Assembly (NCBI GenBank): GCA_017447645.1
Contig: JAFSNA010000095.1
Span: forward strand, 295-64,294
Length of the DNA stretch: 64,000 nt
Source of the DNA: Oscillospiraceae bacterium
Lineage (GTDB): Bacteria; Bacillota; Clostridia; Oscillospirales; Oscillospiraceae
Direction: 5' to 3'
Under the pieces are notes generated by a model. It made no database searches and had not been told where the DNA came from. It was given only the letters and a program-made list of their open reading frames with translations. The translations under genes and the position numbers were made by a program. Shown here piece after piece: positions 1 through 13,996 of this stretch; the stretch's first letter is position 1, and the number at the start of each line of letters is the position of its first letter.

Positions 1-1226
1 AGCACGGCGATGTTGTCAACGCTGTTTTCCGTCTTCCGCGTGTCGGGCTGCCCCAGGTATTTCAGCCGGAACAGCTCGTCGATGACGGCCTTCTCCACGT
101 CCTTGCACCAGAAGCGCTCGCTGTCGCAGCTGTCGGCCTTGCCGAAGCGGGCGTTGCTGGATTCTTGGGAGGAATAGCAGACCAGCTTGTGCCCCTTGTC
201 GCCCCATTTCTGATAGCGCATCTTCGCGCCGCACTCGCCGCAGTACACGAGCCCTGAGAGCAAATAGTTGGAGCTGGTGCGGTTGACGCTGCGCCGTTGC
301 AGCTCCTCCTGGGCCTCCTGCCAGGTTTCCAGGGAGATGATGGCCTCATGGTTGCCCTCGTACTCCTCGCCGTTGAAGACGATGCAGCCGGTGAGGGACT
401 TGCGCATCAGAATCTGACGGATCGCCTGGTCGCCGCTGAAATGAAAGCGCTCCGCGATCTTCTGCGGCGGCATTTTCTCTTCGATGTACAGGCGGAAGAT
501 CTCTTTTACGACCTCCGCTTCTTCGGGCACAATCTCCAGCGAAGATGTCTCCTTGTTGTAGCGGTAGCCGAAGGGCGCGTTGCCACCGCCCATCCACTTG
601 CCGGAGGCCACCCGTGCCTGCCGCCCCCGCTTGAGCTTCTCCACGATCTGGTCGCGGTCGAACTCTGCCAGTGTGGCGAAGAGCATCAGCAGGAATTTGC
701 CTTGCGGGTTGTCCTTGTCGATGCGGCAGTAGTTTTCCGCAACGGAGACAAAGTTGATGTCCTCCCGGTTGCGGTTGACGGCGCTGTTCTTGCTGTCCTT
801 TGCCGCGACGATGTAGTCCTGGATAAATTGCAGCGTGCCCAGCAGGGAGCGGCCCAGACGGTCGATCCTCGCCACCACCAGGGAGTTGACGCGGATGTGC
901 GACTTCCCGTTGTTGAAGTCCGTGATCGCGCCCATGATCTCCTGCAGAGCCGGGCGATCCATGTTGGTGCCGGTATAGCCGTCGTCGATGAAGAGCACCA
1001 GGTTCTTGTAGCCGTTGGCCGTGCACCAGCGGACAATATCGGCCTCCTGGATATCCAGTCCGAAGCCCAGATCCGCCTGCCGGTCCGTGGACACGCGGAG
1101 ATAGCCCACGTTGATGAGGAAATTGTCATCCTCGTCCAGCTCCACGGCCTCGTCGATGACGATCTTCATGTTGTGCTTGAGTTCAAGTATGTTTTTCAAG
1201 TGGTAAGTTCTCTCTGTCTTTTTCAT
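1..1226 (-). CDS. Large serine recombinase (N-terminal ~408 aa; C-terminus beyond window start)
   Basis: My own minus-strand translation from ATG 1226 (RBS AAGGAAGGTG) reads MKKTERTYHL...NVGYLRVSTDRQ, the catalytic Ser motif. Further on it reads ...LSGLVYCGECGAKMRYQKWG, a zinc ribbon. Not in the ORF track because it runs off the window. Confidence 0.9.
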   Translation of the reverse strand, partial: MKKTERTYHLKNILELKHNMKIVIDEAVELDEDDNFLINVGYLRVSTDRQADLGFGLDIQEADIVRWCTANGYKNLVLFIDDGYTGTNMDRPALQEIMGAITDFNNGKSHIRVNSLVVARIDRLGRSLLGTLQFIQDYIVAAKDSKNSAVNRNREDINFVSVAENYCRIDKDNPQGKFLLMLFATLAEFDRDQIVEKLKRGRQARVASGKWMGGGNAPFGYRYNKETSSLEIVPEEAEVVKEIFRLYIEEKMPPQKIAERFHFSGDQAIRQILMRKSLTGCIVFNGEEYEGNHEAIISLETWQEAQEELQRRSVNRTSSNYLLSGLVYCGECGAKMRYQKWGDKGHKLVCYSSQESSNARFGKADSCDSERFWCKDVEKAVIDELFRLKYLGQPDTRKTENSVDNIAV

Positions 1227-1320
1227 AAGTACACCTTCCTTGGTTTGTAATATAGCATGATTTTTCTCTGTTCTCAATAGTTTTTCAATTTTACTCGTAA
1301 GAACTGCGAAACGTAGGAGT

Positions 1321-1366
1321 GGCGAAAAACGGTATGGGACTGTGACGGTCTCATACCGTTTTCGCC
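1321..1366. terminator. Bidirectional hairpin between the 104-aa gene and the recombinase gene
   Basis: GGCGAAAAACGGTATGGGAC-tgtgacg-GTCTCATACCGTTTTCGCC. Roughly 19-bp stem with T runs on both strands. Confidence 0.6.
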
Positions 1367-1373
1367 TTTCTGT

Positions 1374-1688
1374 TTACCGCACCGATTCTCTGTGGCGCGG
1401 CCTCTTGGGCGGCGGCATCGCGTCCCGCTGCTTCACCAGCTCCTGATTCCGCTCCAGCTTTTTGAGCAACGAGGGCTTCCCCGCCGCGGGAGGCTCGTCC
1501 GGTTCCTCGTCGAGCTCGTCGGCCAGCGCGTCCAGCTCGGACCTCGTCAGCGGCCGGCGCTCATTGCGCTCATAGATCTCGTTTACGATCCTGTCCACGT
1601 CGGGACAGTTGATCCTGATCTTGTCGTAATCGGACGGGTCGATCAGCTCGTCTCCGAGAAACAGTCTCACTTTAAATTCCATTGCCAA
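1374..1688 (-). CDS. Hypothetical small acidic protein (104 aa) of the element backbone
   Basis: ORF with RBS GGAAAGGAGGGG upstream of the ATG. No recognisable domain. Confidence 0.6.
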   Translation of the reverse strand: MAMEFKVRLFLGDELIDPSDYDKIRINCPDVDRIVNEIYERNERRPLTRSELDALADELDEEPDEPPAAGKPSLLKKLERNQELVKQRDAMPPPKRPRHRESVR

Positions 1689-1775
1689 CCCCTCCTTTCC
1701 TATGGATTGTTGCCGAATCGGGCAAAAAGTAATCCCCCGCCGGGCGGCGAGGGAGAGTTGAAAACCTTATTCTGT

Positions 1776-2759
1776 TCATAAGCTCAGCTCCTTTTTCTTC
1801 TGCGGGTCGGGCAGGCTGCGCAGCAGCTCCGGCGCGTATTGGCTGACCCTGCGGTACAGGTTATAGTAATCTGCCTCCAACTGCTTCGCGGCCAGCCGCT
1901 CGGACATTTTCTTTTCCCCGGCGGCCGCCAGGTCGGCCTTCTCCTTTTCCAGGCGGCTGACCTTACCCTCCAGCGCTTTCTTGTCTTTATCCAGATCCTT
2001 GTAGGCCTTTTCGTAGCCGCTCAGCGTCTCTTTGAACTTGGTCAGCCTGGGGAAGAGCTTTTTCAGCCGCCGCTTGACCTCCTCCATGTTCTTTTTGGCG
2101 TTGAACGCGTTGGTGTCGTCCAGGATCGCCACGACCGCGCGGATCTGCTTGTCCAGGTTTTCGCTCTCCTTGAAAAGCCGCGGCGGGATGTGGGTGCGCC
2201 CGGTAATACTGGCGCTTTTGCCGCGCTCCAGGTCAGGGTACTTCTCCGCCATGTGCTGCCAGAAGCCGTCCTGCCACTCGGTCAGCTTTTTCTTGTTGCC
2301 GACGATCTCCTTGGCACTCAGCCGCCCATCCTTCGTGATCGGGACAAAAGAAACGTGCATATGGGGCGTTTTCTCGTCCATATGCACTACGGCGGATATG
2401 AAGTTTTCCGGGGCGATCCGGCTCTGCAGGAAGCTCAGCGCGTGCTCGAAGTAGGCGCGGACCTCGTCCATCTTCTTGCCCGCGAAGAACTCCGGGCTCG
2501 CGGTGACGAGCGTCTCCACCACCCGGATGCTGTTGGAGCAGACGCGGGGACACTGGCACGCTTTGATCCGGTCCTCTGCCTCCGCGCGGTACTTGTCCTG
2601 CGGCTCGATCAGGTGAATGTTGTCCTTGCTGCGGGTCAGGTCCACGTCGGGATTGCTGGCGTAGGTCTCCTTGGTGCGCTCGTTGTGGGCCTCGATGTTG
2701 CCGATCTCCGGCCCCTTGTACTTGGCGAAGCGGAGAATGCCGTACTGTGCTTTTGCCAT
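1776..2759 (-). CDS. MobV-family relaxase (Mob/Pre plasmid recombination enzyme)
   Basis: N-terminus MAKAQYGILRFAKYK plus the histidine motif VVHMDEKTPHMHVSFVPI. The ATG at 2759 follows RBS GGAAGGAGG and overlaps the upstream stop (TGATG). Confidence 0.85.
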   Translation of the reverse strand: MAKAQYGILRFAKYKGPEIGNIEAHNERTKETYASNPDVDLTRSKDNIHLIEPQDKYRAEAEDRIKACQCPRVCSNSIRVVETLVTASPEFFAGKKMDEVRAYFEHALSFLQSRIAPENFISAVVHMDEKTPHMHVSFVPITKDGRLSAKEIVGNKKKLTEWQDGFWQHMAEKYPDLERGKSASITGRTHIPPRLFKESENLDKQIRAVVAILDDTNAFNAKKNMEEVKRRLKKLFPRLTKFKETLSGYEKAYKDLDKDKKALEGKVSRLEKEKADLAAAGEKKMSERLAAKQLEADYYNLYRRVSQYAPELLRSLPDPQKKKELSL

Positions 2760-2980
2760 CAGCAGCCCTCCTTCCGCTTTTGCCACACAAGGTCGTATCC
2801 GAGCACGTCGGCCAGCTCGACGGCCTCCCGGTAGCGGAGCGAATTGCGGGCGAGCTTGTTGGAGAAGTTGGAGACGGAATCGCTCCAGCCGTAATCGTCG
2901 TGGAGCCGATCCAGCAGCTCCTGCATCGTGAATCCGGCGCGGATGATCTGCGCCTTGATTTCGTTTCTGGTGTTGGTCAT
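2759..2980 (-). CDS. Small HTH-like protein (73 aa), translationally coupled to the relaxase
   Basis: MTNTRNEIKAQIIRAGFTMQELLDRL... at the end of the 146-aa track ORF. Its stop overlaps the relaxase start. Confidence 0.55.
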   Translation of the reverse strand: MTNTRNEIKAQIIRAGFTMQELLDRLHDDYGWSDSVSNFSNKLARNSLRYREAVELADVLGYDLVWQKRKEGC

Positions 2981-3010
2981 AAGTAAATCCTTCTTTCTTT
3001 GAATTTGCAC

Positions 3011-3038
3011 GGACTTGAAATCCTCTGTTCGTTCGTAC
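3011..3038 (-). repeat. Motif copy D (GTACGAACGAACAGAGGATTTCAAGTCC), candidate oriT/RSA-like site
   Basis: Lies between the primase stop and the HTH-relaxase operon. Matches plus-strand copies at 4968-4994 (22/27) and 5199-5220 (19/22). Confidence 0.4.
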
Positions 3039-3039
3039 G

Positions 3040-4335
3040 TCATGGGATCAGCGCGTAGATGCCCATATAGCCCCGGACGCGGCGGCCGTTGACATAGAGA
3101 TTGTTCGTGGGCTCCAGGCGGTATTCCGGCGCAAGCGCGGCCATTTGATCCAGGAAGCTCTTCTTGGCCAGCGGGAAGTAGGCGTTCTCCTCGCACCACA
3201 GGACATACAACTCGTACAGGCGCTGGGAGGTAATGTCATAGTCCGCCTTGTAGCCGATATACCCCTCGGATTTAAGGAACTCCGTCACGTTGTTTCCCTC
3301 GGACACGCTCTCCTTCATATTCTCCCGGCTGCGCTCGCTGAGCGTGAACTTGTAGCCGTTTGCCAGCAGCCGGTGCAGCCCCTCCAGCGCCCAGAGGAAG
3401 ATGCTGTCGATCTCGCCGCACAGCTTTTCGGACAGGAAGGGATCGTCCACCCGGTCGGCGGGCTTGTCCTTCACCGTCAGAATGATCTGCCGGCGGAAGA
3501 AGCCGACGCTGCGGTCATAGCGGGATTTCAGCGCCCCGTTGCCAAAGCCGATGAAGCGAACATACATGGTGCCCTGGTAGCTCTGCTTGCCCTTCTTCTC
3601 CAGATCCATGGGCAACTCCGCCGTGATCAGGGTTTTCAGGATGTTCGTATCCGGCAGCGCCTCCATCTTCATGTCGTCGTCCACCATCAGCAGGCCGTAT
3701 TCCAGATCGGCGCGGGCGAAGGGACTGGTCTCCACCTTGGCGATGCTGCCGCTGTACATATTGATACCCAGCAGCGCCGACAGCACGATCCCCACACGGG
3801 ACTTGCCCTCGCCGCCCTTGCCCACCAGCATCAGCATTTTCTGCGCCTTGGTGCTGGGGATCAGGCAGTAACCCATGAACTCCTGTAGGGTCAAAATGTC
3901 CTCCGGGATCAGCAGATCATTGAGGAAGGTGATCCATTTTGTCGGGAAAGGCGCGTCCGGATCGTAGCGCACCGGCAGCCGATTCAGGCAGAAGTCCTTG
4001 CTTTGCTCAAAGTGTCCGTCCAGGAACAGCGTGCCGTTAGCCACGTGGATGCGGTCGTGGTAGATCGGCAGGGGCGGAGAGAAGCACTCCGAGCGCAGCG
4101 CCTCCAGCAGATTATTGACCTTGTTGGAGACACGGGTGCGTACATAGGGCTTGATCTGCTGATAGATCTCGCTCTTCAATCGACTCTCGTCCGTGACCTT
4201 GCCGTCCTGCGTGAAAAAAGTCTCGTGGATGCAGAGCATCGGGTGTTCCTCGCGAAAGCATTCGCAGAAGCCCACCTCGTCGATCTTTCCGTTCCCGTCA
4301 AGCCAGATCGGCGCGGGCTCAAAAGATGTCGGCAT
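3040..4335 (-). CDS. Phage/plasmid P4-type primase C-terminal / SF3 helicase family protein
   Basis: 431 aa with Walker A LMLVGKGGEGKSR. Architecture resembles D5_N/primase-helicase proteins of mobile elements. Confidence 0.8.
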   Translation of the reverse strand: MPTSFEPAPIWLDGNGKIDEVGFCECFREEHPMLCIHETFFTQDGKVTDESRLKSEIYQQIKPYVRTRVSNKVNNLLEALRSECFSPPLPIYHDRIHVANGTLFLDGHFEQSKDFCLNRLPVRYDPDAPFPTKWITFLNDLLIPEDILTLQEFMGYCLIPSTKAQKMLMLVGKGGEGKSRVGIVLSALLGINMYSGSIAKVETSPFARADLEYGLLMVDDDMKMEALPDTNILKTLITAELPMDLEKKGKQSYQGTMYVRFIGFGNGALKSRYDRSVGFFRRQIILTVKDKPADRVDDPFLSEKLCGEIDSIFLWALEGLHRLLANGYKFTLSERSRENMKESVSEGNNVTEFLKSEGYIGYKADYDITSQRLYELYVLWCEENAYFPLAKKSFLDQMAALAPEYRLEPTNNLYVNGRRVRGYMGIYALIP

Positions 4336-4894
4336 ATTCGATCACCTCCTTTTGCAGCAGCGCCTCGTAGCGATCCAGCACACCGCCTTCGGTCAGATAG
4401 GCGATCTCGTCCTCTTTCTGCTGTGCTGTGCCCCCGGAAAGCAAATCTGCCAGACCTGCGATAAAATCGTACATCTGGCAGTTCTGCGCGTATTCCGTTG
4501 TGATGGGATCGTCCATGCTCTGCGGCGCGGTTCCCCATTTTTGGTGATGAAGCCGGACCTCCAGAGCCAGCAGCACGTCATGGCAGCGCTTGGCCGGATC
4601 GGGCGGCTTGGGCGGGGCAGGCGTGTATGGGAGATCGACTCCGTTCCCGAAGTCTGCGAGCAGCTTTTCCGCCGCTTCCTTCAGCGACAGGTTGAAGTAC
4701 TTCGCCGTGAAGTCGATCACGTCTCCGTCCTCCCCGCAGCCGAAGCAGTGGAAACGCTCGTCCAGCTTCATGCTGGGGTTGTGGTCGTCGTGGAAGGGAC
4801 ACACTGCCATCCCGCGGCTGTTTACCGTCAGCCCATAGTGTTCTGCCGCCTCGCGGGCTGTGACGAGGCCTTTGATTGCTTTGAAATCAATCAT
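4319..4894 (-). CDS. CHC2 zinc-finger (DnaG-type) primase-like protein
   Basis: CPFHDDHNPSMKLDERFHCFGCGEDGDVIDF motif. Overlaps the downstream helicase gene by 17 nt. Confidence 0.8.
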   Translation of the reverse strand: MIDFKAIKGLVTAREAAEHYGLTVNSRGMAVCPFHDDHNPSMKLDERFHCFGCGEDGDVIDFTAKYFNLSLKEAAEKLLADFGNGVDLPYTPAPPKPPDPAKRCHDVLLALEVRLHHQKWGTAPQSMDDPITTEYAQNCQMYDFIAGLADLLSGGTAQQKEDEIAYLTEGGVLDRYEALLQKEVIEYADIF

Positions 4895-4934
4895 CTCTTG
4901 TACCTCCTGTATTCGATTCGGAGGCAGGAAAAGA

Positions 4935-4994
4935 AAAAGACCTGAACTCTTCCGCCCAGGTACGGTAGTACGAATGGACGGATGATTTCAGGTC
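4935..4994 (+). repeat. Hairpin module copy A (GACCTGAA...TTCAGGTC) containing a motif related to D
   Basis: The 5' end AAAAAGACCTGAACTC and 3' end GATGATTTCAGGTC resemble copies B and C. On the minus strand the hairpin is followed by a T run just upstream of the CHC2 gene. Confidence 0.5.
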
Positions 4995-5151
4995 GCTGCG
5001 TTTTTCTGTTCAGTTGTGCGTGTGATCCCTCCTTTCGCGCAGATGGAAGTTTCTTTTCTTTTTCGCTGCCTCCACCCAATTATACGAAAAAATCCCTCAC
5101 GAAAGGCTGAAATCGACACGATTGCAATTTGGCAAGCCGCTCTCGGCGGAG

Positions 5152-5169
5152 AATTGCAGATCTGCAATT
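5152..5169. promoter_or_regulatory. Perfect 18-bp palindrome AATTGCAGATCTGCAATT (candidate operator)
   Basis: Read directly. A related palindromic half-site ATTGCAAT sits at 5121-5128. Confidence 0.45.
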
Positions 5170-5178
5170 TTGGGCACA

Positions 5179-5221
5179 AAAAAGACCCGGAGTCACCGGT
5201 ACGAACGTACAGATGATTCCG
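5179..5221 (+). repeat. Module copy B, left flank of the PRTase-DprA-phosphoesterase cassette
   Basis: AAAAAGACCCGGAGTCACC ... GATGATTCCG. The first 19-mer is 18/19 identical to 8035-8053, and the terminal 10-mer is identical to 8073-8082. Confidence 0.6.
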
Positions 5222-5235
5222 TATTGCAAGCCGTG

Positions 5236-5264
5236 TTGCCATTAAACAAATCCTGGTGTATTAT
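5236..5264 (+). promoter_or_regulatory. Candidate sigma-70 promoter (TTGCCA-17-TATTAT) at the start of the AT-rich cassette
   Basis: Hexamers and spacing read directly. TATAAT is also present at 5262-5267. Confidence 0.4.
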
Positions 5265-5316
5265 AATAATAACAACTAAAGAACAGAAAGAAGGGATTAT
5301 CAAGAACTTCTTCAGT

Positions 5317-5571
5317 ATGACAGGTGAGCTTTATGATGATCAAAATCTTTTCCAAATCAAGTTCCCTGACCAACTTTGGACAAACATCAGAGTCTTTGTC
5401 CGCAATTTCAGGGACCTGCCACTATGGAAGGACCGGACAATGGCGTCAACTGTATTTGGAGGAAAGCAAGTGAGCGAATACTGGAGCACAGCCTTTCGCA
5501 CAGGAAGAACGCCAGATGGTACTATCGTTTTGTCTAAGCCCATTAACGTCGTTGATATGATCAAGTCATAA
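5317..5571 (+). CDS. Possible small protein (84 aa), uncertain
   Basis: Internal ATG of the 149-aa track ORF. No convincing RBS and no recognisable domain. Confidence 0.25.
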   Translation: MTGELYDDQNLFQIKFPDQLWTNIRVFVRNFRDLPLWKDRTMASTVFGGKQVSEYWSTAFRTGRTPDGTIVLSKPINVVDMIKS

Positions 5572-5639
5572 CCTGGCAATGGACAAGCTCTGCTTTTATG
5601 CTATAATAGATTTGATAAGGTTTTCTTGGAGGTCTCATA

Positions 5640-6230
5640 ATGGCTGTTGAAGTACATCCTATCCAGCTAAACGGGAATTGGGATATCGGCTATGCGTTGG
5701 ATCAGCATGTAATAAGAAGTGTTCATATTGCAGACGATCCGTTCGGTAATCCTGTTTTTGACAACACATACTCTGAAATCGGCGAACTGTTGACCAAATT
5801 CAAGTATAAAGGGCGATATGACAACCTGACAGAAATTGTTTCAACAATCGAAGTGTTTTTACGATCACATCCAGAAATGATGGATTTTGAGACCATTATT
5901 CCTGTTCCACCCACAAAGTTTAGACCTTATCAGCCGACATGGGAAATATGTGAGGCTTTGGCAAAGGATTTAAATCGTTTTTTTATTACTGATGTTCTTG
6001 TAAAGGAATCTGGTGTCGAGTCAAAAGGCTTATCTCTTGAGGAAAAACGCCAGCTCAGTGGTACAATTCGACAGCAACATCGGGCCAAACGGAAGCATAG
6101 TGTTTTGCTCCTTGATGACCTATATAAAACTGGGACAACCTTGACAGAGTGTGTAAGTGTTCTTCGTCGGGATCCTCTGATTGATAAAATCTACGTGCTA
6201 ACGGTCACAAAAACAAAGAACCCGAGTTAA
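5640..6230 (+). CDS. ComF-like phosphoribosyltransferase (PRTase) family protein
   Basis: PRPP-binding loop VLLLDDLYKTGTTLTE. RBS GGAGG 7 nt upstream. Extended -10 TGCTATAAT at 5599-5607. Confidence 0.8.
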   Translation: MAVEVHPIQLNGNWDIGYALDQHVIRSVHIADDPFGNPVFDNTYSEIGELLTKFKYKGRYDNLTEIVSTIEVFLRSHPEMMDFETIIPVPPTKFRPYQPTWEICEALAKDLNRFFITDVLVKESGVESKGLSLEEKRQLSGTIRQQHRAKRKHSVLLLDDLYKTGTTLTECVSVLRRDPLIDKIYVLTVTKTKNPS

Positions 6231-6250
6231 CTCTAGTGGGGAGGTGAAGT

Positions 6251-7189
6251 ATGAAAAACCAGTACCTGTTGCAGCTGATGCTCACCAAAGGAATTGGTGA
6301 TGCTGCGATAAAGAAAATACTTCACTATGCTTTTACGCATCAAGATGTTTCGCTTGAGCTCTTCTGCAAAGAGCCTTTGCAGCTGAATGCGGTGTTGAAT
6401 TGCAAGGAAGAAACCTTGCTAAGCATACTGCAGAATGAAGAGCGCGCGAAAAAGCTTTGTGGTGAAATGTTGGAAAAAGGGATCGCTGTTATTTCTGAAA
6501 TTGATAGCGAGTATCCCGAACATTTGAAAAAGGCGCTCAATGGGCAATGCCCACCTGTGCTTTTTGTGAAGGGGAACTCAGCGTTGCTCTCAACGAAGTC
6601 CGTCGGCTTCTGTGGCTCACGAAAGGTTTCTCCAAAAGGCGTAATGATTACCGGACAGTGCGCTGAGCAGCTGACCGACCGAGGAATCACAGTTGTCAGC
6701 GGGTATGCTGCAGGAACAGACTTGGCCGCGCATAGCGCAGCTTTAGCGCATGGCGGCAACACTGTGTTCGTTTTGGCGGAAGGTCTTTTGAAGAACACAG
6801 AGAAAGTCGAGATTCGGGATCTGCTCACAGAAGAGAACCACGTTTTTGTTTCTCAATTCCTTCCGGCACAGACATGGAACGTCGGGAATGCCATGCGGCG
6901 GAATGCTGTTATTATCGGGCTTTCAAGCGCAATGATCCTGGTCGAGTCAGGAAAAACTGGTGGAACATTTGCGGCAGGCGAGGAATCATTGAAACGGGGA
7001 ACTCCGTTGTTCGTGATCGACTATGAGAAGCCTGAGGTCTCTGCGGAGGCAAATCCGTACTTCATCGAAAAAGGCGGAATGCCTATCCGAGGGAAGAAGG
7101 GCGTCCCAAACCTTGAGAAAGTCTTTCGTGCTATAGACGAATCAGGCCAAACGCCTCCTTGTTCCGAGCAGTTGATGCTTGACTTATGA
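6251..7189 (+). CDS. DprA/Smf-like (SLOG-superfamily Rossmann) protein
   Basis: VGFCGSRKVSPKG...VVSGYAAGTDLAAHSAALAHGGNTVFVLAEGL...MRRNAVIIGLS...VESGKTGGTFAAG matches the remembered DprA core pattern. RBS GGGGAGGTG upstream. Confidence 0.8.
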   Translation: MKNQYLLQLMLTKGIGDAAIKKILHYAFTHQDVSLELFCKEPLQLNAVLNCKEETLLSILQNEERAKKLCGEMLEKGIAVISEIDSEYPEHLKKALNGQCPPVLFVKGNSALLSTKSVGFCGSRKVSPKGVMITGQCAEQLTDRGITVVSGYAAGTDLAAHSAALAHGGNTVFVLAEGLLKNTEKVEIRDLLTEENHVFVSQFLPAQTWNVGNAMRRNAVIIGLSSAMILVESGKTGGTFAAGEESLKRGTPLFVIDYEKPEVSAEANPYFIEKGGMPIRGKKGVPNLEKVFRAIDESGQTPPCSEQLMLDL

Positions 7190-8034
7190 AGATTTACGTC
7201 ACAGCTGACGTTCACGGCTTTTACACTGAATTTCATAATGCGCTGGATGAGGCGGGGTATTTCATCGATCCAGATCCGCACAAGCTAATTATTCTGGGCG
7301 ATATCTTCGACCGCGGTACAGAGGCAGTCGAGATGCAGCAGTTCATCTTGGAGCTCATGGAGCAGAACGCTGTCATTCTGATACGCGGGAATCATGAAGA
7401 TCTCTTCGCGGAAATGATTACGATCGACGAGGGCCTGCCTGTCCGGCATCATGTGAGCAATGGCACCTACGGTACGGCGCTGCAGCTGACCGGCTACGAT
7501 CCGACGCTGGCGCAGATCCGGCATTGGGATTTCGCCGAGAAAGCGCGGGAGACACCGTATTATCAGCGCATCATCCCCGCGACAATTGATTGGTACGAGA
7601 CGGCGCATTACATCTTCACCCATGGCTGGATCCCCTGCATCCGCGGATGGGACGGCAGCTACAGTTATGATCCCGACTGGCGCGACACCGGGCCGGAGGG
7701 CTGGCGGATGGCGCGTTGGTATAATGGGATGGACGCCGCGCAGAGCTGCACGGAAGAGAAAACGATCCTCTGCGGGCACTGGCACAGCTCCTACGGCCAC
7801 AGCAAGTATGAGGGCAAGGGCTCGGAGTTCGGCCCCGACGCCGATTTCAGCCCGTACTACGGCCCCGGCGTTATCGCGCTGGACGCCTGCACCACGCACA
7901 GCGGGAAAGTCAATGTGATCGTGATAGAAGATGATGACCTTCCCGATCAAGACGCAGAGGACGAGCGTTTCCGCGAGGTAACGCAGCGCATCCTCGAGGA
8001 GCACAAAGCAGCTTTCGTGGAGTTGGCAAAATAG
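7186..8034 (+). CDS. Calcineurin-like metallophosphoesterase (PPP/ApaH-like)
   Basis: Motifs DVHG, GDIFDRG, GNHED and CGHWHSS. The start ATG overlaps the DprA-like stop (ATGA). Confidence 0.85.
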   Translation: MKIYVTADVHGFYTEFHNALDEAGYFIDPDPHKLIILGDIFDRGTEAVEMQQFILELMEQNAVILIRGNHEDLFAEMITIDEGLPVRHHVSNGTYGTALQLTGYDPTLAQIRHWDFAEKARETPYYQRIIPATIDWYETAHYIFTHGWIPCIRGWDGSYSYDPDWRDTGPEGWRMARWYNGMDAAQSCTEEKTILCGHWHSSYGHSKYEGKGSEFGPDADFSPYYGPGVIALDACTTHSGKVNVIVIEDDDLPDQDAEDERFREVTQRILEEHKAAFVELAK

Positions 8035-8085
8035 AAAAAGACCCGGAATCACCGCATCAGTTTGATGACATCGATGATTCCGGGT
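8035..8085. terminator. Module copy C: bidirectional terminator hairpin, right flank of the cassette
   Basis: ACCCGGAATCA (8041-8051) pairs with TGATTCCGGGT (8075-8085), with an A run before and a T run after. Its ends repeat copy B. Confidence 0.7.
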
Positions 8086-8094
8086 TTTCTGTTA

Positions 8095-8958
8095 TTATGC
8101 GCCAATCAGATTCTGCGTAATCTGATCGAAGAAATCCTTCCCCCACACAGCAAGCTTGTTTGGATCCTTGATAAACGGCAAGACGTCCTGCTTTGCCTGC
8201 TCATAGTCGATCGTTGCAAAACGTGCGTGAAGAAGCTCTTTCAGTTGCCCAATATCCAATGGAGCGTCTGTGTCGAGAAATTCGGATTGCCGGAGGCGAG
8301 CTTCCAGGTGCTTCAGATTGACCGGTGTATTCATTGAGAGATAGAACACATAGTCATAGAGATCGCGGCCCTTGATGCGATTTTTCCAAGCACGGCAAAG
8401 AACAGCATGTATTTTCCCTGCAAACAGAGAAGGCGCATCATACAGGCAGATCTCATAGGGGCTGGGCAGCAGCCGATACCTATGCTCAAAGGTTGCAAAG
8501 GGCGGCGGATTTGTGTCGATCTCGAATTTGATTTTGATCAGTTCGCTCGGCGCGATGGACTGAGCAAGACGATCATCCGCGTAGAACAGCAGGATGTGCT
8601 CCTTTGTGTTCCCCTTCAGAAAGGCAGATTGGATAGCGGATTCCGCCGTCTTTACACGCCCTTCAGCTTTGAAGTTCAGCCCGTAGGATCGGATCTCCTT
8701 TTCCAGCACCGGAAGATACTCGCCCAGGTCAAAACCCTCCGGCGCCATCAGCGAAAAGTCAAGATCCTCCGAGAAACGATCCAGGCCATAGAAAATCCGC
8801 AGCGCCGTTCCGCCGTAGAAGGCTACGTGCTTGAAAAAACCGGCACGGCTCAGCCCGCAAAGCACGATCTCCTGAATGATCTCCTTGATGGCATTCTTCT
8901 TGTCGGCCGAAGTCTGTGGCTCATAGGCGCGCAGCATCTGCTCAAGTACTTGTTGCAT
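8095..8958 (-). CDS. abiEii: AbiEii/AbiGii-family nucleotidyltransferase toxin
   Basis: FYGGTALRIFYGLDRFSEDLDFSL motif. The likely start MQQVLEQ at 8958 overlaps the upstream gene end. Confidence 0.8.
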   Translation of the reverse strand: MQQVLEQMLRAYEPQTSADKKNAIKEIIQEIVLCGLSRAGFFKHVAFYGGTALRIFYGLDRFSEDLDFSLMAPEGFDLGEYLPVLEKEIRSYGLNFKAEGRVKTAESAIQSAFLKGNTKEHILLFYADDRLAQSIAPSELIKIKFEIDTNPPPFATFEHRYRLLPSPYEICLYDAPSLFAGKIHAVLCRAWKNRIKGRDLYDYVFYLSMNTPVNLKHLEARLRQSEFLDTDAPLDIGQLKELLHARFATIDYEQAKQDVLPFIKDPNKLAVWGKDFFDQITQNLIGA

Positions 8959-9544
8959 GATGGGTCTCCTTTCTGATCCAGGATCGCAGCAGCTTGTGGT
9001 TCTTCGTCTGGTACAGCGCGGCAAGCTGTTCCATCTCTGCGAGGTCAAGCCCTAAGAGCGTTTGACGGTCGATTCGCAGATTTTCAAACAGCAGCTGCTC
9101 CAGCTCCCTTCGATTTGCACAAGGCGAGAGCTTATACAACTCGTCACAGAGCGCCTTTTCCGGCGCGGCCAAGCGATAGCTGTATCCGTTCTCGACCATC
9201 GGCAGGACACCGTAGGGGAAAGCAGATTCCGGCACGTCCCGATAACTGAAGACGCCGAAGGGCGTTTCAAACTGCTTGGCCCTCTTCTTGTCAAAGCTTG
9301 CCGACGTGAATTGATGGACAGCTTCCGGGATCAGGCCATGGTGGGCAAGGGCGTATTCAAAAGACAGATAGGACGGGCCGTAAATACTCGCTGCAAGAAG
9401 ATAGCCCGGTGTATGGGGATCGGTCTCATACAACCCGCGCACGACGCGGGTCAATTCGCCGTTCTTTACCATGCTCGTAATCTTCATTGCAGGATTTCTA
9501 TAGCCATTCAGTTCATCCATAAGGACAAGATGCGTTTTTAGCAT
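8942..9544 (-). CDS. abiEi: AbiEi-family antitoxin / transcriptional regulator
   Basis: MLKTHLVLMDELNGYRNPAMKITSMVKNGELTRVVRGLYE... N-terminal wHTH pattern. RBS GGTGGTG. Overlaps abiEii by 17 nt. Confidence 0.75.
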   Translation of the reverse strand: MLKTHLVLMDELNGYRNPAMKITSMVKNGELTRVVRGLYETDPHTPGYLLAASIYGPSYLSFEYALAHHGLIPEAVHQFTSASFDKKRAKQFETPFGVFSYRDVPESAFPYGVLPMVENGYSYRLAAPEKALCDELYKLSPCANRRELEQLLFENLRIDRQTLLGLDLAEMEQLAALYQTKNHKLLRSWIRKETHHATST

Positions 9545-9563
9545 ATTTTCACCACCAGTTACA

Positions 9564-9592
9564 ATATTACTGTAATTGCTGGCAAAAATCAA
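9564..9592 (-). promoter_or_regulatory. Candidate abiE promoter (TTGATT-17-TAATAT) with overlapping imperfect inverted repeat
   Basis: Hexamers read on the minus strand. TTACA-n7-TGTAA and CCAG...CTGG lie at 9555-9582. Confidence 0.45.
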
Positions 9593-9655
9593 GCGGTTTT
9601 TGCGATTCAATTCATTCTCTTTGGGAGAGCTTCTATGTTTTCAAATAGTCTATTG

Positions 9656-9664
9656 TGATATAAT
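9656..9664 (+). promoter_or_regulatory. Extended -10 element TGATATAAT upstream of the 112-aa gene
   Basis: Read directly. No strong -35. Confidence 0.35.
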
Positions 9665-9719
9665 GGTCAACACAGAGGTTGAAAAGAATAGCATTGCTCA
9701 GCGAGAGGAGGTGAAGGGC

Positions 9720-10058
9720 ATGAGCAAGTATTCAGACGACGATATTCGTGAAATGAACCGGGTTACCATTCAAGCCGCGGCACAGTATCTTGGCATATCT
9801 GCAGCAGCGGTTACCATGGGCATGAGGAACGCATTGCTCCCAATTGGTTTTGCTGTCAAAAACGAAGAAAACCGATATTCAGATTCCTGGCATTACGTCA
9901 TTGTTCCCGAAAGACTTATTGCTTACAAGCACGGGCGAATTAATGAAATCCAAGTTAAGAACATAGAAGACAGTCTAACGACAATCGTAAAAAGTTTTGA
10001 GGAAATGAAGCACGACCTGCTTTTTCTATTAAAAGAAAACGAGGGATCGGAGGGATAA
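9720..10058 (+). CDS. Hypothetical small protein (112 aa), possible HTH
   Basis: Internal ATG preceded by GAGAGGAGGTGAAGGGC. Contains VTIQAAAQYLGISAAAVTMGMRN, a helix-turn-helix-like segment. Confidence 0.5.
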   Translation: MSKYSDDDIREMNRVTIQAAAQYLGISAAAVTMGMRNALLPIGFAVKNEENRYSDSWHYVIVPERLIAYKHGRINEIQVKNIEDSLTTIVKSFEEMKHDLLFLLKENEGSEG

Positions 10059-10111
10059 AAGTATTTGACAGCCTGTTCCAGCAAGAAGAAAAGAAGGAGG
10101 AGGTGAAAGAA

Positions 10112-11626
10112 GTGGGCGGAAAAACCGTAAGTCGGCAGGAGTTATACGATGAAATATGGACTATTTCAGCAAGTAAGGCAGCCGAGAAATATGAGATAAG
10201 CTACGCAAGGTTTCTGAAAATCTGCAGAGAGAACAGCATTCCAATCCCGCCTTCCGGCTATTGGACAAAGCTGCAATGCGGAAAGCCTGTTGAAAAGACA
10301 CCTTTGCCAGCGTCAAAAATAGATGTTGTTGTGCTTGACCCTGAAAAAGGGAAACCAAAAGAAACAGACGAAATCATAGCACAGCAGGCAGTCATCGTCC
10401 CTGATGAGGAAAAAATCGGGCTGGAGATCCGATATGAAGGCCAAACGCAAAGGTACAATCGGGAGACCTTATACCAGGAAGTATGGGAAGAGCCTATGAC
10501 GGTCGTCAGCAAGCGATATGGAATGTCTGATAATGGGCTCAGAAAAATCTGTCGTAAGCTTGATGTTCCGTTCCCTCCGGCTGGATATTGGGCAAAAGTG
10601 CGTGCTGGGAAGTCAGTATCAAAGCCTGCGCTCCCGAAAGTGAAAACACCACCTAACGAAGATAAACCCAAGACAGGAGAGCGCCGAAAACTACATGTTG
10701 AAGAAACTGCACTTTCGTTCTTAAAGGAAGAGGACCGCAGGAAAATCGTAGATGCTGCAAGTAAGCTGCGCGTTGCCGGACCTGGTGCCAAGCTGCATAA
10801 GGATATTGCCAGCCAGAAGGAAAAATGCGAAAGCTGGCTGGAACGGCAAAAAGAGCGTGGTCAAAGGTATGGCCGATATGTCGAGGAAGTGCCGGTTCTT
10901 GCCGCAGACATCTCAAAAGAGAGCTACGGTCGGGCCTTCCACATACTGGATGCTTTGCTGAAAGGCATGCTGCCCTTTGGCGCTTCTGTAACATACCAAT
11001 TCCATTTTCAGGTGAACGGCGAAGATGTTCCCTTTTCCATGTCGGAATCAAAGGATCAGATTCCTCACACGGTTACGCAAGAGGAAAAGCTGGCTTTGCT
11101 TAAATATGAAGAAGCAAAGAGAAAGAATTCTTGGGCATCAAAGCCCAATATCCCCAAATGGGAGCATCCATGGAACGGAAGACTGACGCTGACCATTAAC
11201 GGAAAATACAAATTCATGGACTGCAAATCCTATTCTCTCGAAGATCGAATCGGCGAAATCATGATCGCTTTCTATGAAGCCTCCTATGCTGTGCGGCTGC
11301 AGAGACTGGAAGCGGAAGAAAAGAGGCGCAAAGAAGAAGAGGAGCGCAGAAAGGCGGAGGAGATTCGCGCGAGATACAACAAGGAAATCGATTATACGGG
11401 AGGGCTGATCAACGCAGCAGAAGACTATGATACTGCATGCAAGCTCCGCGCCTATATCGCTGCGGTAAAGGCCTCTGGTCAGAAATCGGAAGACTGGATC
11501 GAATGGGCGAACGCGAAAGCGGATTGGTTTGATCCAACCATTCATGCAGAAGATCCATATTTTGGCGTAAGGCAGCATGCCAAGAGCGCAGACAGCAAAA
11601 TGCCAAAGCGGAAAGGATACTGGTAA
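10112..11626 (+). CDS. Hypothetical protein with two N-terminal HTH-like repeats and a coiled-coil-like EK-rich segment
   Basis: GTG at 10112 (or 10103) after AAGGAGGAGG. Repeats are ELYDEIW...LKICRENSIPIPPSGYWTKL and TLYQEVW...LRKICRKLDVPFPPAGYWAKV. Confidence 0.7.
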   Translation: MGGKTVSRQELYDEIWTISASKAAEKYEISYARFLKICRENSIPIPPSGYWTKLQCGKPVEKTPLPASKIDVVVLDPEKGKPKETDEIIAQQAVIVPDEEKIGLEIRYEGQTQRYNRETLYQEVWEEPMTVVSKRYGMSDNGLRKICRKLDVPFPPAGYWAKVRAGKSVSKPALPKVKTPPNEDKPKTGERRKLHVEETALSFLKEEDRRKIVDAASKLRVAGPGAKLHKDIASQKEKCESWLERQKERGQRYGRYVEEVPVLAADISKESYGRAFHILDALLKGMLPFGASVTYQFHFQVNGEDVPFSMSESKDQIPHTVTQEEKLALLKYEEAKRKNSWASKPNIPKWEHPWNGRLTLTINGKYKFMDCKSYSLEDRIGEIMIAFYEASYAVRLQRLEAEEKRRKEEEERRKAEEIRARYNKEIDYTGGLINAAEDYDTACKLRAYIAAVKASGQKSEDWIEWANAKADWFDPTIHAEDPYFGVRQHAKSADSKMPKRKGYW

Positions 11627-11665
11627 AGCTTTTGGTTCAGCATTCAAAAGCAGCAAAATGGTGCA

Positions 11666-11712
11666 GTTAAGAGGGCAACTTTTGCAAAAATGCAAAAAGT
11701 TACCCCCTTAAC
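11666..11712. repeat. Long imperfect palindrome downstream of the 505-aa gene
   Basis: GTTAAGAGGGCAACTTTTGCA-aaaa-TGCAAAAAGTTACCCCCTTAAC. Confidence 0.5.
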
Positions 11713-11784
11713 TCGATATTTTCATGTTGCGGCTAATGCTATACACATCGGCAAAAAATCAAAAAAATGCCGAAATGTATTTTG

Positions 11785-11816
11785 CTGAATTTGAATTCAG
11801 TGAATTTGGATTCAGT
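11785..11816 (+). repeat. Tandem 15-nt repeat GAATTTG(A/G)ATTCAGT x2
   Basis: CTGAATTTGAATTCAGTGAATTTGGATTCAGT read directly. Confidence 0.5.
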
Positions 11817-11830
11817 AAAAAGCGGTGGTT

Positions 11831-11847
11831 GCTCTCCAATCCGATAG
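11831..11847. repeat. Copy of the sigG junction core (GCTCTCCAATCCGATAG)
   Basis: Compare GCTTTTCTCCATCCGATAA at 12441-12459. AATCCGAT also recurs at 11861-11868 and 11891-11898. Confidence 0.45.
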
Positions 11848-11858
11848 ATTTCGGGTTT

Positions 11859-12422
11859 TCAATCCGATGAATTTTCGCCCTCGAAGTTATAATCCGATAT
11901 GACTCTCACCTTCAACTGCGGCGGGCTGTCCGGCACGGCGCGGTTGTTATAGATGGGGAGGCCAAGCTTCTCCAGCAGGATGCGCCAGCGGCGGGTGTGG
12001 TTGTACTTGGCGATGGCGAACCAGCCGCGGGAGGGATGGGCGCGGCGGGCGTTGTAGTCCTCGGCGCTGGTCGGCTGGATGCGCAGGTACTCCTTGATGA
12101 AGTCTTCGGTGGCCTTGGCCTGGACCTCATCGAGGGGCATTTTCTTTGTCGGGTAGTGCTGCTCCAGCCACTCCTGCAGCGTGATGCCGAAGCGGCGCTT
12201 GATGACCGTGTGCGGCGGGAGGCCGCGCTTCTTGAAATCACTGGTGGTCGGCACCCGACCGTGGTCGAGGATGAACTGCTCCACGGCGTCGAAGATCGCT
12301 TCTTCCGACCAGCTGAAAAAAGGCAGTTCCCCGGACAGCGTATGTAAGATCCCTGCGGCCTCGGTCTGGCCGGCCGCGTTCAGTGCTTCGATGGCGGCGC
12401 TCAGCGCCTGCTTGCGTGTCAT
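11859..12422 (-). CDS. Element-encoded hypothetical protein (187 aa), possible DNA-binding repeat protein
   Basis: Only the C-terminal part of the 544-aa track ORF is plausible. ATG 12422 follows AGGAGG 9 nt upstream. Two degenerate W/F..G..P....F repeats recall homing-endonuclease-associated repeats. Confidence 0.6.
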   Translation of the reverse strand: MTRKQALSAAIEALNAAGQTEAAGILHTLSGELPFFSWSEEAIFDAVEQFILDHGRVPTTSDFKKRGLPPHTVIKRRFGITLQEWLEQHYPTKKMPLDEVQAKATEDFIKEYLRIQPTSAEDYNARRAHPSRGWFAIAKYNHTRRWRILLEKLGLPIYNNRAVPDSPPQLKVRVISDYNFEGENSSD

Positions 12423-12427
12423 AGAGA

Positions 12428-12748
12428 TCAGCCTCCTGTGGCTTTTCTCCATCCGATAATCGCTGGAACGCCGTAGGTGGAGAACTGCACCTGCTGGCCC
12501 AGGTCGAAGGCATCCACCGCCTTGATCAGGCCGATCACGCCGACCTGGAAGAGGTCGTCCATGCTTTCGCCGCGGCCGGAGAAACGCTGCACCACGCTCA
12601 GCACCAGGCGCAGATTGCCCTCGATCAGCTTCTGCCGCGCCTGCATGTCGCCGCCGCGCGCTTTTTCGAGCAGCATTTTGGTCTCCGCGCTCTTCAGAAC
12701 CGGCAGCTCCGCGGTGTTCACCCCGCAGATCTCGACCTTTCCCTGCAT
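12428..12748 (-). pseudogene. sigG: 5' fragment of a sporulation sigma factor G-like gene, interrupted after codon 99
   Basis: MQGKVEICGVNTAELPVLK...GNLRLVLSVVQRF...DDLFQVGVIGLIKAVDAFD...FSTYGVPAIIG parallels B. subtilis SigG up to ...STYAVPMIIG. It then reads WRKATGG-stop instead of EIRRYLRD. Confidence 0.8.
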
Positions 12749-12784
12749 GAACATCCCCCACTTTCGGAAAAGAGAAAGTGGAGT

Positions 12785-12814
12785 TAGTATTTCCCGCCGC
12801 GGGAAAAATCATAC
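12785..12814 (-). promoter_or_regulatory. Forespore-type (sigma-F/G-like) promoter candidate GTATG-N18-AATACTA
   Basis: Read on the minus strand about 40 nt upstream of the sigG start. Resembles the remembered sigma-G consensus GHATR-N18-CATXHTA. Confidence 0.45.
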
Positions 12815-12842
12815 GGCCGCGAACCATATGCGGAAACAGCGG

Positions 12843-12869
12843 AAACGGGCGGCCGACGGCCGCCCGTTT
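12843..12869. terminator. Hairpin terminator AAACGGGCGGCC-gac-GGCCGCCCGTTT
   Basis: Perfect 12-bp stem with a T run. Lies downstream of the minus-strand gene ending at 12884. Confidence 0.7.
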
Positions 12870-12883
12870 TTCTTTTGCTTTAT

Positions 12884-13996
12884 TCAGTAGCGCATCATGT
12901 CCGAGGCGTAGAGCTGTCCGTCCTTTTCGCAGACGAAGACCCGCGCGCGGTTTTCCGAGCGCGTGGTCCCGCTCAGGCCCAGCGTGTCGACCGTGAAGCA
13001 GACGTCGCAGACATATTCGCCCTCGCTCAGGCGGATGAACGCGCGGTGCTCGACGGAGACGAGATCGTTCCGGCGGTTGTGCGACCAGAGCTGGCCGTTG
13101 CGCGCGTTGGCCGCGCGCGCGGCAAGATCGCTCTCCGGCAGCAGCAGCGTCACGATCGCGCGGTAGCCGCTCACGACCATGTCCCGGTGACAGCCCATGA
13201 ACGCGACGTAGCCCGCGCAGTAGCGGTCGATAAAGTCCTCGAGAGCCGCCTTCTCCTGCGCCGAGCAGCTGTTCAGGATGCTCTCGCGCAGCAGCGCCTC
13301 GAAATCCGTGTCGGCGCCGTATTCCCGCCCCTCGCCGTCCGTGATGCGCAGCGGCGTCTCGCCGATGCGGTCCGTGACGGTGTAGGTGACGAGCTCCGGC
13401 GGCTCCTGCGCCGTGCCGGCGAGGTAGGAAAGCTCCGGGCAGGCGGCGCGGCGCGCGGTCACATAGCTCTCGTCCAGCTCGTAGCCGCCGCATTCCACGC
13501 GGAAGCCCTCCGGCACCGTGACCGTGAGGTCGCTCTCGGCCGGGAGGAAGGAGAAGTCCAGCTCCTCGCCGCAGACTTTCCAGGGGCGGATCCCCCGGGC
13601 GGCGTTCTCGCCGCGCTCAAGCGTCAGCGAGCCGACGATCTGATCGCCGGAGAGAAGGATCCATCTCTCGTTTTCCGCGCTGCAGCCCGCCTCGTCGCGC
13701 ACGCCGCGCAGATCTCCGTGCAGCAGCGGCGCGGCATAGCGCGCAAAGATCTCCCGCGCCGGGCAGATCCGGCTGTCGAAATGCGCGAGCGAGGGCTCGG
13801 CCAGGAGGAAGGCGTGCTCGTCGTCCAGCGTGTCGATCCAGGCGTTCACGGCGCTCGGCGCGCTCGCGTCCTCATAGGCCTTCAGCCAGCGCTGCAGCAG
13901 GAAGAGCCCCGCGCCGAGCAGGATCAGAAAGACCAGCGCGTAAACGAGCATCGCGCGGCCGAGTCCGCCTTTTCTTTTTCTTTTCGCTCCGCTCAT
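12884..13996 (-). CDS. Membrane-anchored hypothetical protein (370 aa)
   Basis: Start MSGAKRKRKGG followed by TM helix AMLVYALVFLILLGAGLFLL. ATGA overlap with the upstream gene. Confidence 0.65.
   Translation of the reverse strand: MSGAKRKRKGGLGRAMLVYALVFLILLGAGLFLLQRWLKAYEDASAPSAVNAWIDTLDDEHAFLLAEPSLAHFDSRICPAREIFARYAAPLLHGDLRGVRDEAGCSAENERWILLSGDQIVGSLTLERGENAARGIRPWKVCGEELDFSFLPAESDLTVTVPEGFRVECGGYELDESYVTARRAACPELSYLAGTAQEPPELVTYTVTDRIGETPLRITDGEGREYGADTDFEALLRESILNSCSAQEKAALEDFIDRYCAGYVAFMGCHRDMVVSGYRAIVTLLLPESDLAARAANARNGQLWSHNRRNDLVSVEHRAFIRLSEGEYVCDVCFTVDTLGLSGTTRSENRARVFVCEKDGQLYASDMMRY

Follow-up and report, generated by a model that had tools for sequence, protein, structure and literature searches.

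Intervening elements split a number of sporulation genes, among them skin in sigK, SPbeta in spsM, vrin in spoVR, gin in gerE and phi3T in kamA (PMC4191935, PMC6957869, preprint 10.1101/2022.02.25.481979, each used here for its accessible parts); vfbin in spoVFB is also known, the list available in PMC6957869 giving spoIVFB. As far as the accessible text of PMC4191935 and PMC6957869 goes, all described targets are mother-cell genes, and the retention of the elements is explained by excision that is confined to the mother cell. As this cell dies, the loss is of no cost to the element. Here we describe an integrative mobilizable element of 12,867 bp (~12.9 kb), inserted at about codon 95 of sigG in a 64,000-nt stretch of DNA from an Oscillospiraceae bacterium (contig JAFSNA010000095.1, hereafter the window). 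This element departs from the known type in that its target is a forespore gene and not a mother-cell gene. It has several traits of that type: insertion within a sporulation gene, a large serine recombinase (LSR) at the element edge that adjoins the 3' part of the gene, and an excision that restores the reading frame, at least in silico. A widespread family of elements that splits sigG, the gene of the late forespore sigma factor, breaks the mother-cell-only rule, and in the literature searched (most subscription journals and supplements lay outside the search) we found no description of a split sigG.

The central feature of the locus is the way in which the first element gene is joined to the interrupted host gene; all sigG features, and those of this element gene, lie on the minus strand of the window. 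The truncated sigG frame comprises SigG residues 1 to ~94, its homology stopping at ...FSTYGVP, and continues with 11 element-encoded codons and a TGA at 12430-12428. Only 5 nt further on, at 12422, is the ATG of an element gene for a 187-aa protein, P187, whose Shine-Dalgarno (SD) motif AGGAGG is embedded in the last codons of the truncated frame. A preliminary description of this stretch had reported the stop, the gap, the overlapping AGGAGG and the 187-aa frame, and all four are as it said. It had also claimed that no terminator intervenes, and in fact our terminator scan gave no minus-strand site from 12810 to 11859. Because the ATG of P187 lies only 42 nt inside the element, directly past the P' attachment arm, P187 receives its ribosome-binding site from the element but has no room there for a promoter. 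The nearest same-strand promoter, with the element integrated, is that of sigG.

Promoters of the sigma-F type follow the consensus GYATR-N14-16-GGNRANAHTR. Upstream of the truncated sigG, the preliminary description had pointed to GTATG (12814-12810) and AATACTA (12791-12785) separated by 18 nt, and these letters are there; of its assignment to a sigma-G/sigma-F type, the sigma-F half is the better fit, with GTATG as the -35, a 15-nt spacer that holds the palindrome TTTCCCGCGGCGGGAAA and GGAAATACTA (12794-12785) as the -10, whereas the strict sigma-G pattern has no match. The sigma-G reading, GHATR-N17-18-CATNNTA, was tried and set aside, as it fits only when the first -10 base is relaxed. 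The strict sigma-F-type motif occurs once on the two strands of the window, at the sigG promoter, six times across the whole 1.92-Mb assembly and nowhere inside the element. Among the 35 related loci with at least 400 nt of upstream sequence, 28 have the motif by regular expression, ~336 nt ahead of the junction, and the other seven carry variant letters in the -35 or the -10; the conservation of the block GTAT[CG]A..TTTCCCnnnnCGGGAAATACTA among the related loci is plain to see. In the accessible text of PMC3789822, sigG promoters are of the sigma-F type, and that of C. difficile, in which a G precedes the -10, is nearer to this type. As architecture, we consider promoter capture well supported: it is real and conserved, and chance would seldom produce it. 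The sigG leader also contains a hairpin, CCACTTTC...GAAAGTGG, that pairs with or abuts the sigG ribosome-binding site, and most related loci (L013-L027) have an equivalent, CACCACTC...GAGTGGTG followed by TTTTT. A leader structure is said to limit sigG translation in Bacillus, and the hairpin here recalls it.

By profile scores, both pieces of the split gene match SigG better than SigF, SigE or SigK models. The N-terminal part scores 154 bits against the NCBIfam SigG equivalog NF006071 (positions 2-100) and 149.7 bits against TIGR02850, with 98-106 bits for SigF models; the C-terminal part, on contig C102, covers profile positions 84-253 with 225 bits for SigG versus 178 for SigF. Neither piece alone can attain whole-protein cut-offs, and intact relatives, at ~400 bits, stay below the TIGR02850 cut-off of 457. 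The true sigG start is likely the ATG at 12748 (MQGKVE...), relatives beginning at MQGK.

At the two ends of the element, the attachment site attL reads TACGGCGTTCC then AGCGATTATCGGATGGAG, and attR reads CTCCATCCGATAATCGTTCC then GATGATCGCC, with CGTTCC as the crossover zone common to both. The P and P' arms form a perfect 16-bp inverted repeat around TTCCAG, which looks as expected for the attP of a serine integrase, and the rebuilt attP junction is a perfect 18-bp hairpin. Excision in silico at CGTTCC removes 12,867 bp and yields a 258-aa SigG that aligns without gaps to two intact SigG of the same genus (75.6% and 73.3% identity), and the rebuilt junction, FSTYGVP/MIAGELRRFLRDH (FSTYGVP/MIAGELRR), is identical to that of the intact same-genus SigG. 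Both sigG parts are intact around the element, the 5' part at 12754-12428 and the 3' part on C102. Contigs C76 and C102 join because the reverse complement of the C76 start equals the C102 end over exactly 141 nt. The assembly breaks within the recombinase gene, in its 3' end and not at an attachment site. Strain variants of the element are the probable cause; in runs X1 and X5, the recombinase and the genes next to it are covered by several variant contigs.

The recombinase gene occupies the margin opposite P187. Its product has the domains of an LSR (Resolvase PF00239, 95.4 bits; Recombinase PF07508, 47.2; Zn_ribbon_recom PF13408, 43.7), and its stop lies ~48 nt before the P arm and the element end, after which the 3' part of sigG follows. 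Directly upstream of the LSR is a gene for a small conserved protein, p104, with the conserved N-terminus MEFKVRLFLGD..DPSDY...DRIVNEIYERN and a terminator-like site upstream of it at 1754-1733.

Dozens of gut bacteria share this layout. Homologues of P187 number 207 at E <= 0.001. Across species-representative genomes a scan found 20 P187 loci, mostly in metagenome-assembled genomes (MAGs) of rumen or gut Oscillospiraceae or Ruminococcaceae, and a SigG N-terminal part stands directly upstream of P187 on the same strand in 16 of them; the four exceptions are a contig that begins inside the gene (L011), two partial matches (L023, L025) and a relative of 28% identity (L028). All five genomes searched for the other margin (5/5) hold a single LSR (77-98% identical to that of the window), which the sigG C-terminal part follows within ~60-80 nt, and have p104 upstream of the LSR. 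Metagenome contigs searched with an attL pattern that excluded P187 yielded 27 loci, in 25 of which P187 follows the junction on the same strand; the remaining two end 5 and 70 nt past the pattern, so that every informative locus (25/25) has the gene. P187 is a core gene of this element family, not a dispensable one. The family is diverse, with P187 down to ~55% and the LSR down to ~57% identity, and is always found at the same sigG site, both sigG halves being open and full-length in all loci examined. In a sparse sample of 201 genomes of the same family, P187 was found in three (the own genome, a relative of 26% identity and a fragment) and a close LSR in the own genome only.

The window and 47 loci provided 41 measurable junctions. 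The distance from the crossover to the ATG of P187 is 41-43 nt in 28 of these, 92 nt in one, 203-206 nt in ten and 273 nt in two, and an SD-like motif precedes the ATG in all 41. The sigG frame continues in frame into P187 at nine junctions; at the other 32 it stops at varied places or continues in another frame. Among the 120 homologues listed, 27 are in-frame fusions of 289-295 aa with Sigma70_r2, laid out as the SigG N-terminal part, a short linker (GWRKA.....) and MTRKQAL.... Because most junctions are out of frame, with varied stops, the fusion looks incidental, and separate initiation of P187 at its conserved SD motif and ATG looks like the rule. Two of the junctions with long spacers were scanned, and neither a terminator nor a same-strand sigma-70-like promoter was found in them. 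For the window itself, a promoter of P187's own inside the 42-nt arm was considered and discarded, no minus-strand sigma-70-like site being present in 11000-13200. One MAG contig (L012) has two sigG 5' parts 3.3 kb apart (6168-6703 and 9509-10555): the first has a frameshift and is fused to the C-terminal half of a P187 homologue, a full P187 comes after the second, and the duplication looks like a remnant of an earlier insertion or of aberrant recombination.

What kind of protein is P187? The preliminary description had seen two DNA-binding-type repeats. One of them holds up as a Pfam HNH_repeat (PF18780) at aa 39-79 only, with 28.2 bits against a gathering cut-off of 26; a second copy was not detected, and BLASTP of the two halves against each other gave no alignment. 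The AF2 model is all-helical (mean pLDDT 77.5), and a wide VIA-align search relates each half weakly to small helix-turn-helix domains (Z 3.5-5.8). Foldseek of the model against PDB and BFVD gave no match at E <= 0.001, the ESM Atlas search nothing beyond P187's own family, and the PHROGs search a single unnamed family at E 0.0015; two alignments found no P187 relatives in viral_contigs. A complex prediction for LSR residues 200-506 with P187, both as alignments, scored 0.01 and 0.05, values that carry no weight for or against contact. According to the accessible part of PMC11795197, the directionality factors of LSRs share no common sequence family. The case for P187 as such a factor is positional, from its place at the margin opposite the integrase. 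The copies of (T)ATCGGAT(T) at and just past the 3' end of the P187 gene (TATCGGAT repeats) could be extra binding sites of the recombinase or of P187, or the trace of an older element end. Each of the two motif versions has three of its four matches in the window within 11837-12458 (620 nt), on the minus strand, and among close relatives sequence conservation ends right after the last copy, ...ATCGGATTGGA. The motif (T)ATCGGAT(T/G)G also occurs in the P' arm (12449-12458, minus strand).

The rest of the element is summarized in Table 1. From P187 toward lower coordinates the gene order is the 507-aa protein, AbiEi/AbiEii, metallophosphatase, DprA-like, phosphoribosyltransferase-like, primase-like, helicase, relaxase, p104 and the LSR. 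No transfer-apparatus family was found among the 16 element open reading frames (ORFs) scanned, ORFs of <90 aa falling outside the scan, and an integrase and a relaxase without a detected conjugation apparatus make this an integrative mobilizable element. The cargo block at 5640-8034 has a G+C content of 42-56%, lower than the host, and may be a defence or nucleotide-modifying module; its metallophosphatase is also present in the related elements L014 and L016. The 507-aa protein contains two copies of the motif ...RKICRxxxIPxPPxGYW, which weakly matches RWP-RK (Pfam) and the C-terminus of an HNH-endonuclease PHROG, and is 89-93% identical to its counterparts in L016 and L031.

Table 1. Features of the sigG element and its junction with the host gene (window coordinates).
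Feature	Position	Strand	Basis or remark
Element portion within the window	1..12464	.	extends a further 294 nt, as far as the contig C76 start, then into contig C102
Large serine recombinase (LSR), ~525 aa	3..1226	-	Pfam; 3' end beyond the window
Sigma-70-like LSR promoter: TTGAGA, 17 nt, TATATT with TG	1249..1277	-	10/12 matches; shuffled sequences average 0.3 hits
p104, small conserved protein (102-104-aa ORF) directly upstream of the LSR	1374..1682	-	conservation
Mob_Pre relaxase	1776..2786	-	Pfam, 167 bits
D5/DUF5906-type helicase	3040-4335	-	Pfam/NCBIfam
CHC2 zinc-finger primase-like protein	4319-4894	-	Pfam/NCBIfam
Cargo block: phosphoribosyltransferase-like, DprA/SLOG-like, metallophosphatase	5640-8034	+	Pfam/NCBIfam
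AbiEi/AbiEii toxin-antitoxin cargo	8095..9610	-	Pfam/NCBIfam; common to many related elements
507-aa element protein	10103-11626		Pfam/PHROG weak matches
(T)ATCGGAT(T), three copies resembling the P' arm, at the P187 3' end and just past it	11837..11899	-	motif scan
P187, first and core element gene, 187 aa, all-helical	11859..12422	-	one Pfam HNH_repeat match
Shine-Dalgarno motif AGGAGG of P187	12432..12437	-	9 nt before the P187 ATG
sigG (spoIIIG) 5' part, 108-aa ORF	12754/12748..12428	-	SigG equivalog match
P' arm (AGCGATTATCGGATGGAG...)	12440..12464	-	inverted repeat with P arm
Crossover zone CGTTCC, common to attL and attR	12465..12470	-	attL/attR comparison
Hairpin in sigG 5' leader, just upstream of the sigG ribosome-binding site	12758..12781	-	inverted-repeat scan
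sigG promoter, forespore (sigma-F) type	12785..12814	-	strict motif match and conservation in relatives

What would this wiring be for? Our tentative preference, a reasonable reading that has two serious rivals and that we hold at somewhat less than even confidence, is that P187 is made in the forespore from the sigG promoter and there most likely times the excision of the element by the LSR. We envision that the LSR inserts the element at about codon 95 of sigG, so that the truncated sigG mRNA would carry P187 as its second cistron. Constitutive production of the LSR would come from the sigma-70-type promoter of its own gene. When sigma-F fires the sigG promoter, P187 would appear in the forespore and act as the directionality factor of the LSR, or as a DNA-binding cofactor or regulator at the element ends. 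Excision at CGTTCC would then rebuild sigG and, in the same step, disconnect P187 from the sigG promoter. We infer the read-through transcript from the sigG promoter into P187, its cell type and its timing, and likewise any role of P187 in recombination. An excision role is suggested by the position of P187 and the LSR at opposite margins, from which they would flank attP in the circle.

Several observations weigh against timed excision. To begin with, excision in the forespore would strip the element from the germ-line chromosome. Neither attB nor attP forms are present in the own assembly, and in runs X1 and X2, the likely source (assembled contigs, compared over window 1-14000), attL is spanned in the integrated form only, with 0 differences. 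In the same comparison, none of the 24 listed of 336 loose contig ends lies at the junction and the assembled contigs of X5 and X6 start inside sigG at 12722; taken by itself, this contig comparison counts neither for nor against excision. The attP pattern had 0 matches in viral_contigs, and the RNA runs contained at most 0.09 of the sampled words. P187 matches no known directionality factor, HNH_repeat being its sole family match. The neighbour of the LSR is a competitor in this respect: p104 lies directly upstream of the LSR in 5/5 complete LSR loci, and also in L071, is as conserved as P187, and may be regarded as a rival directionality-factor candidate. In the rebuilt circle, the ATG of P187 would come to lie 93 nt downstream of the LSR stop, separated from it by the attP hairpin only, with no U-tract or canonical terminator in between, and a directionality factor co-made with the integrase in the circle could therefore hinder integration; the hairpin, or bound integrase, may block this read-through.

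Distant relatives also count on this side. In L028 (positions 1-3207), a phage-like Lachnospiraceae contig with a P187 relative of 28% identity, the end of an LSR gene, a 14-bp inverted repeat (CACCTTGCATACGC / GCGTATGCAAGGTG), an SD motif and a P187-like gene of 229 aa follow each other on one strand, lysin and holin genes being on the other. Since this contig shows the same order, the LSR-attP-P187 unit is older than the link to sigG. In L030 (G014:C92, 2800-4004), a P187-like gene of 26% identity (221-236 aa) is divergent from a sigG 3' part, starting ~40 nt from the start of that part on the opposite strand, and hence is not behind the sigG promoter; a search of the same genome (G014) did not find a sigG 5' part. 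This arrangement means that a second element family uses the same sigG region in the other orientation. Moreover, the co-orientation seen in close relatives is one inherited trait and not many independent events, and the insertions may be recent, in which case intact sigG halves need not prove continued use.

How could an element survive its own removal from the germ line? In one version of timed excision, forespore P187 triggers excision, the non-dividing forespore keeps the circle inside the spore with the help of the element's own primase and helicase, and the circle re-enters sigG at germination. We think this cycle rather unlikely, yet it would make the sigG element the first intervening element to edit the future spore genome and not that of the disposable mother cell. 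The sigG promoter in front of P187 would be a testable answer to the question of element timing, and may explain how germ-line excision is survived.

The alternative that fares best, although we would still call it somewhat unlikely, takes the LSR-attP-P187 unit as its starting point: P187 would be driven by the LSR promoter in the circle, following transfer or excision, and serve establishment, replication control or integration, p104 being the directionality factor. The position behind the sigG promoter would then be a by-product of a fixed orientation, in a vegetatively silent target that keeps P187 off. The phage-like order of L028, the 93 nt free of a U-tract terminator, the good sigma-70-like promoter of the LSR and the constant place of p104 all argue for it, this place being that of Skr in skin (PMC6957869, accessible part). 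The 18-bp attP hairpin, in contrast, is the predicted binding site of the LSR and may block read-through, and P187 is core in all informative junctions. p104, for its part, sits without an evident promoter between the terminator-like site and the hairpin, and its AF2 model is of such low confidence (pLDDT 60.7) that it provides no tie to known directionality factors.

Less likely again, and in our view improbable, is an ordinary insertion that knocks out sigG, with no developmental excision: carriers would be asporogenous, or the element would be excised or mobilized occasionally, P187 would be a regulator or a cargo gene, and its link to the promoter would be without function. The integrated form is indeed the only one in the assembly and the source-run contigs, and a Mob relaxase and replication functions are encoded in the element. 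Among 18 genomes of the same genus, sigG is intact in 10, split in two and without a SigG-level match in six (completeness 65-95%), the last group being compatible with such losses. The LSRs of the two split genes are 98% and 95% identical to that of the window, their SigG C-terminal parts only 72% and 82%. Near-identical LSRs in hosts with diverged SigG indicate that the element spreads horizontally, which fits the relaxase, and under recent spread the halves may simply not yet have decayed. Against a mere knock-out speak the age and diversity of a family that is always at the same site, the sigG halves that remain open and full-length in all loci examined, and an in-silico excision exact to the codon. 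The host, in which no second sigG was found, retains SpoIVA (over the cut-off), a SigF-like gene and the other sporulation sigma genes. Finally, in the accessible text of PMC4191935 and PMC6957869, the described serine-recombinase elements in sporulation genes all excise during sporulation. A split sigG was also seen outside the family, in G224 (same order, contigs C15 and C10), with an N-terminal part matching positions 2-96 and a C-terminal part matching 92-253.

That the truncated SigG (core-binding regions 1.2-2.x) and P187, fused or in trans, form a new RNA-polymerase-binding factor of the forespore is suggested by the 27/120 in-frame fusions, the 9/41 in-frame junctions and the helix-turn-helix-like modules of P187, and is highly implausible given 32/41 junctions out of frame, an SD motif and ATG of P187 conserved throughout, and fold matches to sigma factors that are not significant.

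Even if the wiring were idle, this family would still be a common cause of split sigG in rumen and gut Oscillospiraceae, which annotators should recognise. If the sigG promoter does drive P187, a design of this kind is useful for recombinase-based genetic switches.

Among described systems, SPbeta in spsM of B. subtilis (SprA, SprB) is, like the sigG element, an LSR element inside a sporulation gene. As given in the available part of PMC8270828, sprA and sprB occupy opposite margins and so come to flank attP once the circle forms, as the LSR and P187 would here, and in that of PMC6957869 sprA is constitutive and sprB sporulation-controlled; the LSR of the sigG element likewise has its own sigma-70-like promoter. 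The difference is in the wiring, since the phage itself supplies sprB with a sigma-E/K promoter and a stress promoter, whereas P187 would borrow the promoter of the gene that is interrupted. Furthermore, spsM is a mother-cell gene, so that excision spares the spore genome (PMC4191935, accessible text), whereas sigG is a forespore gene. A further difference is that neither the sequence nor the fold of P187 matched any solved protein.

In skin, which splits sigK (SpoIVCA and Skr in B. subtilis, CD1231 and CD1234 in C. difficile), a sporulation sigma gene is interrupted by a serine-recombinase element, as here. Its recombinase lies at the edge that borders the 3' part of the gene (preprint 10.1101/2022.02.25.481979, accessible part), like our LSR, and the small Skr is directly upstream of the recombinase (PMC6957869, accessible part), the place that p104 has in the sigG element. 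However, the skin target is the mother-cell and not the forespore sigma factor, and skin is a prophage remnant whereas the sigG element is a mobilizable island with a relaxase and a primase/helicase. The non-phage serine-recombinase element gin in gerE of Bacillus cereus ATCC 10987 resembles the sigG element in its insertion within a sporulation gene; its target is a mother-cell gene, and the accessible text describes no element gene on a host promoter (PMC5595907). Unlike skin, the sigG element has an extra core gene at its far edge, behind a host promoter, and if this works as proposed it would stand as a clear example from nature in which a mobile element leaves control of one of its genes to the promoter of the gene it interrupts. 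Tn4451 and Tn4453 (TnpX) are LSR elements in which joining or separating the ends changes the promoter of an end-proximal gene. There, the joined ends form a promoter that drives the recombinase, whereas in the sigG element the promoter would be that of the host and would drive a gene other than the recombinase while the element is integrated.

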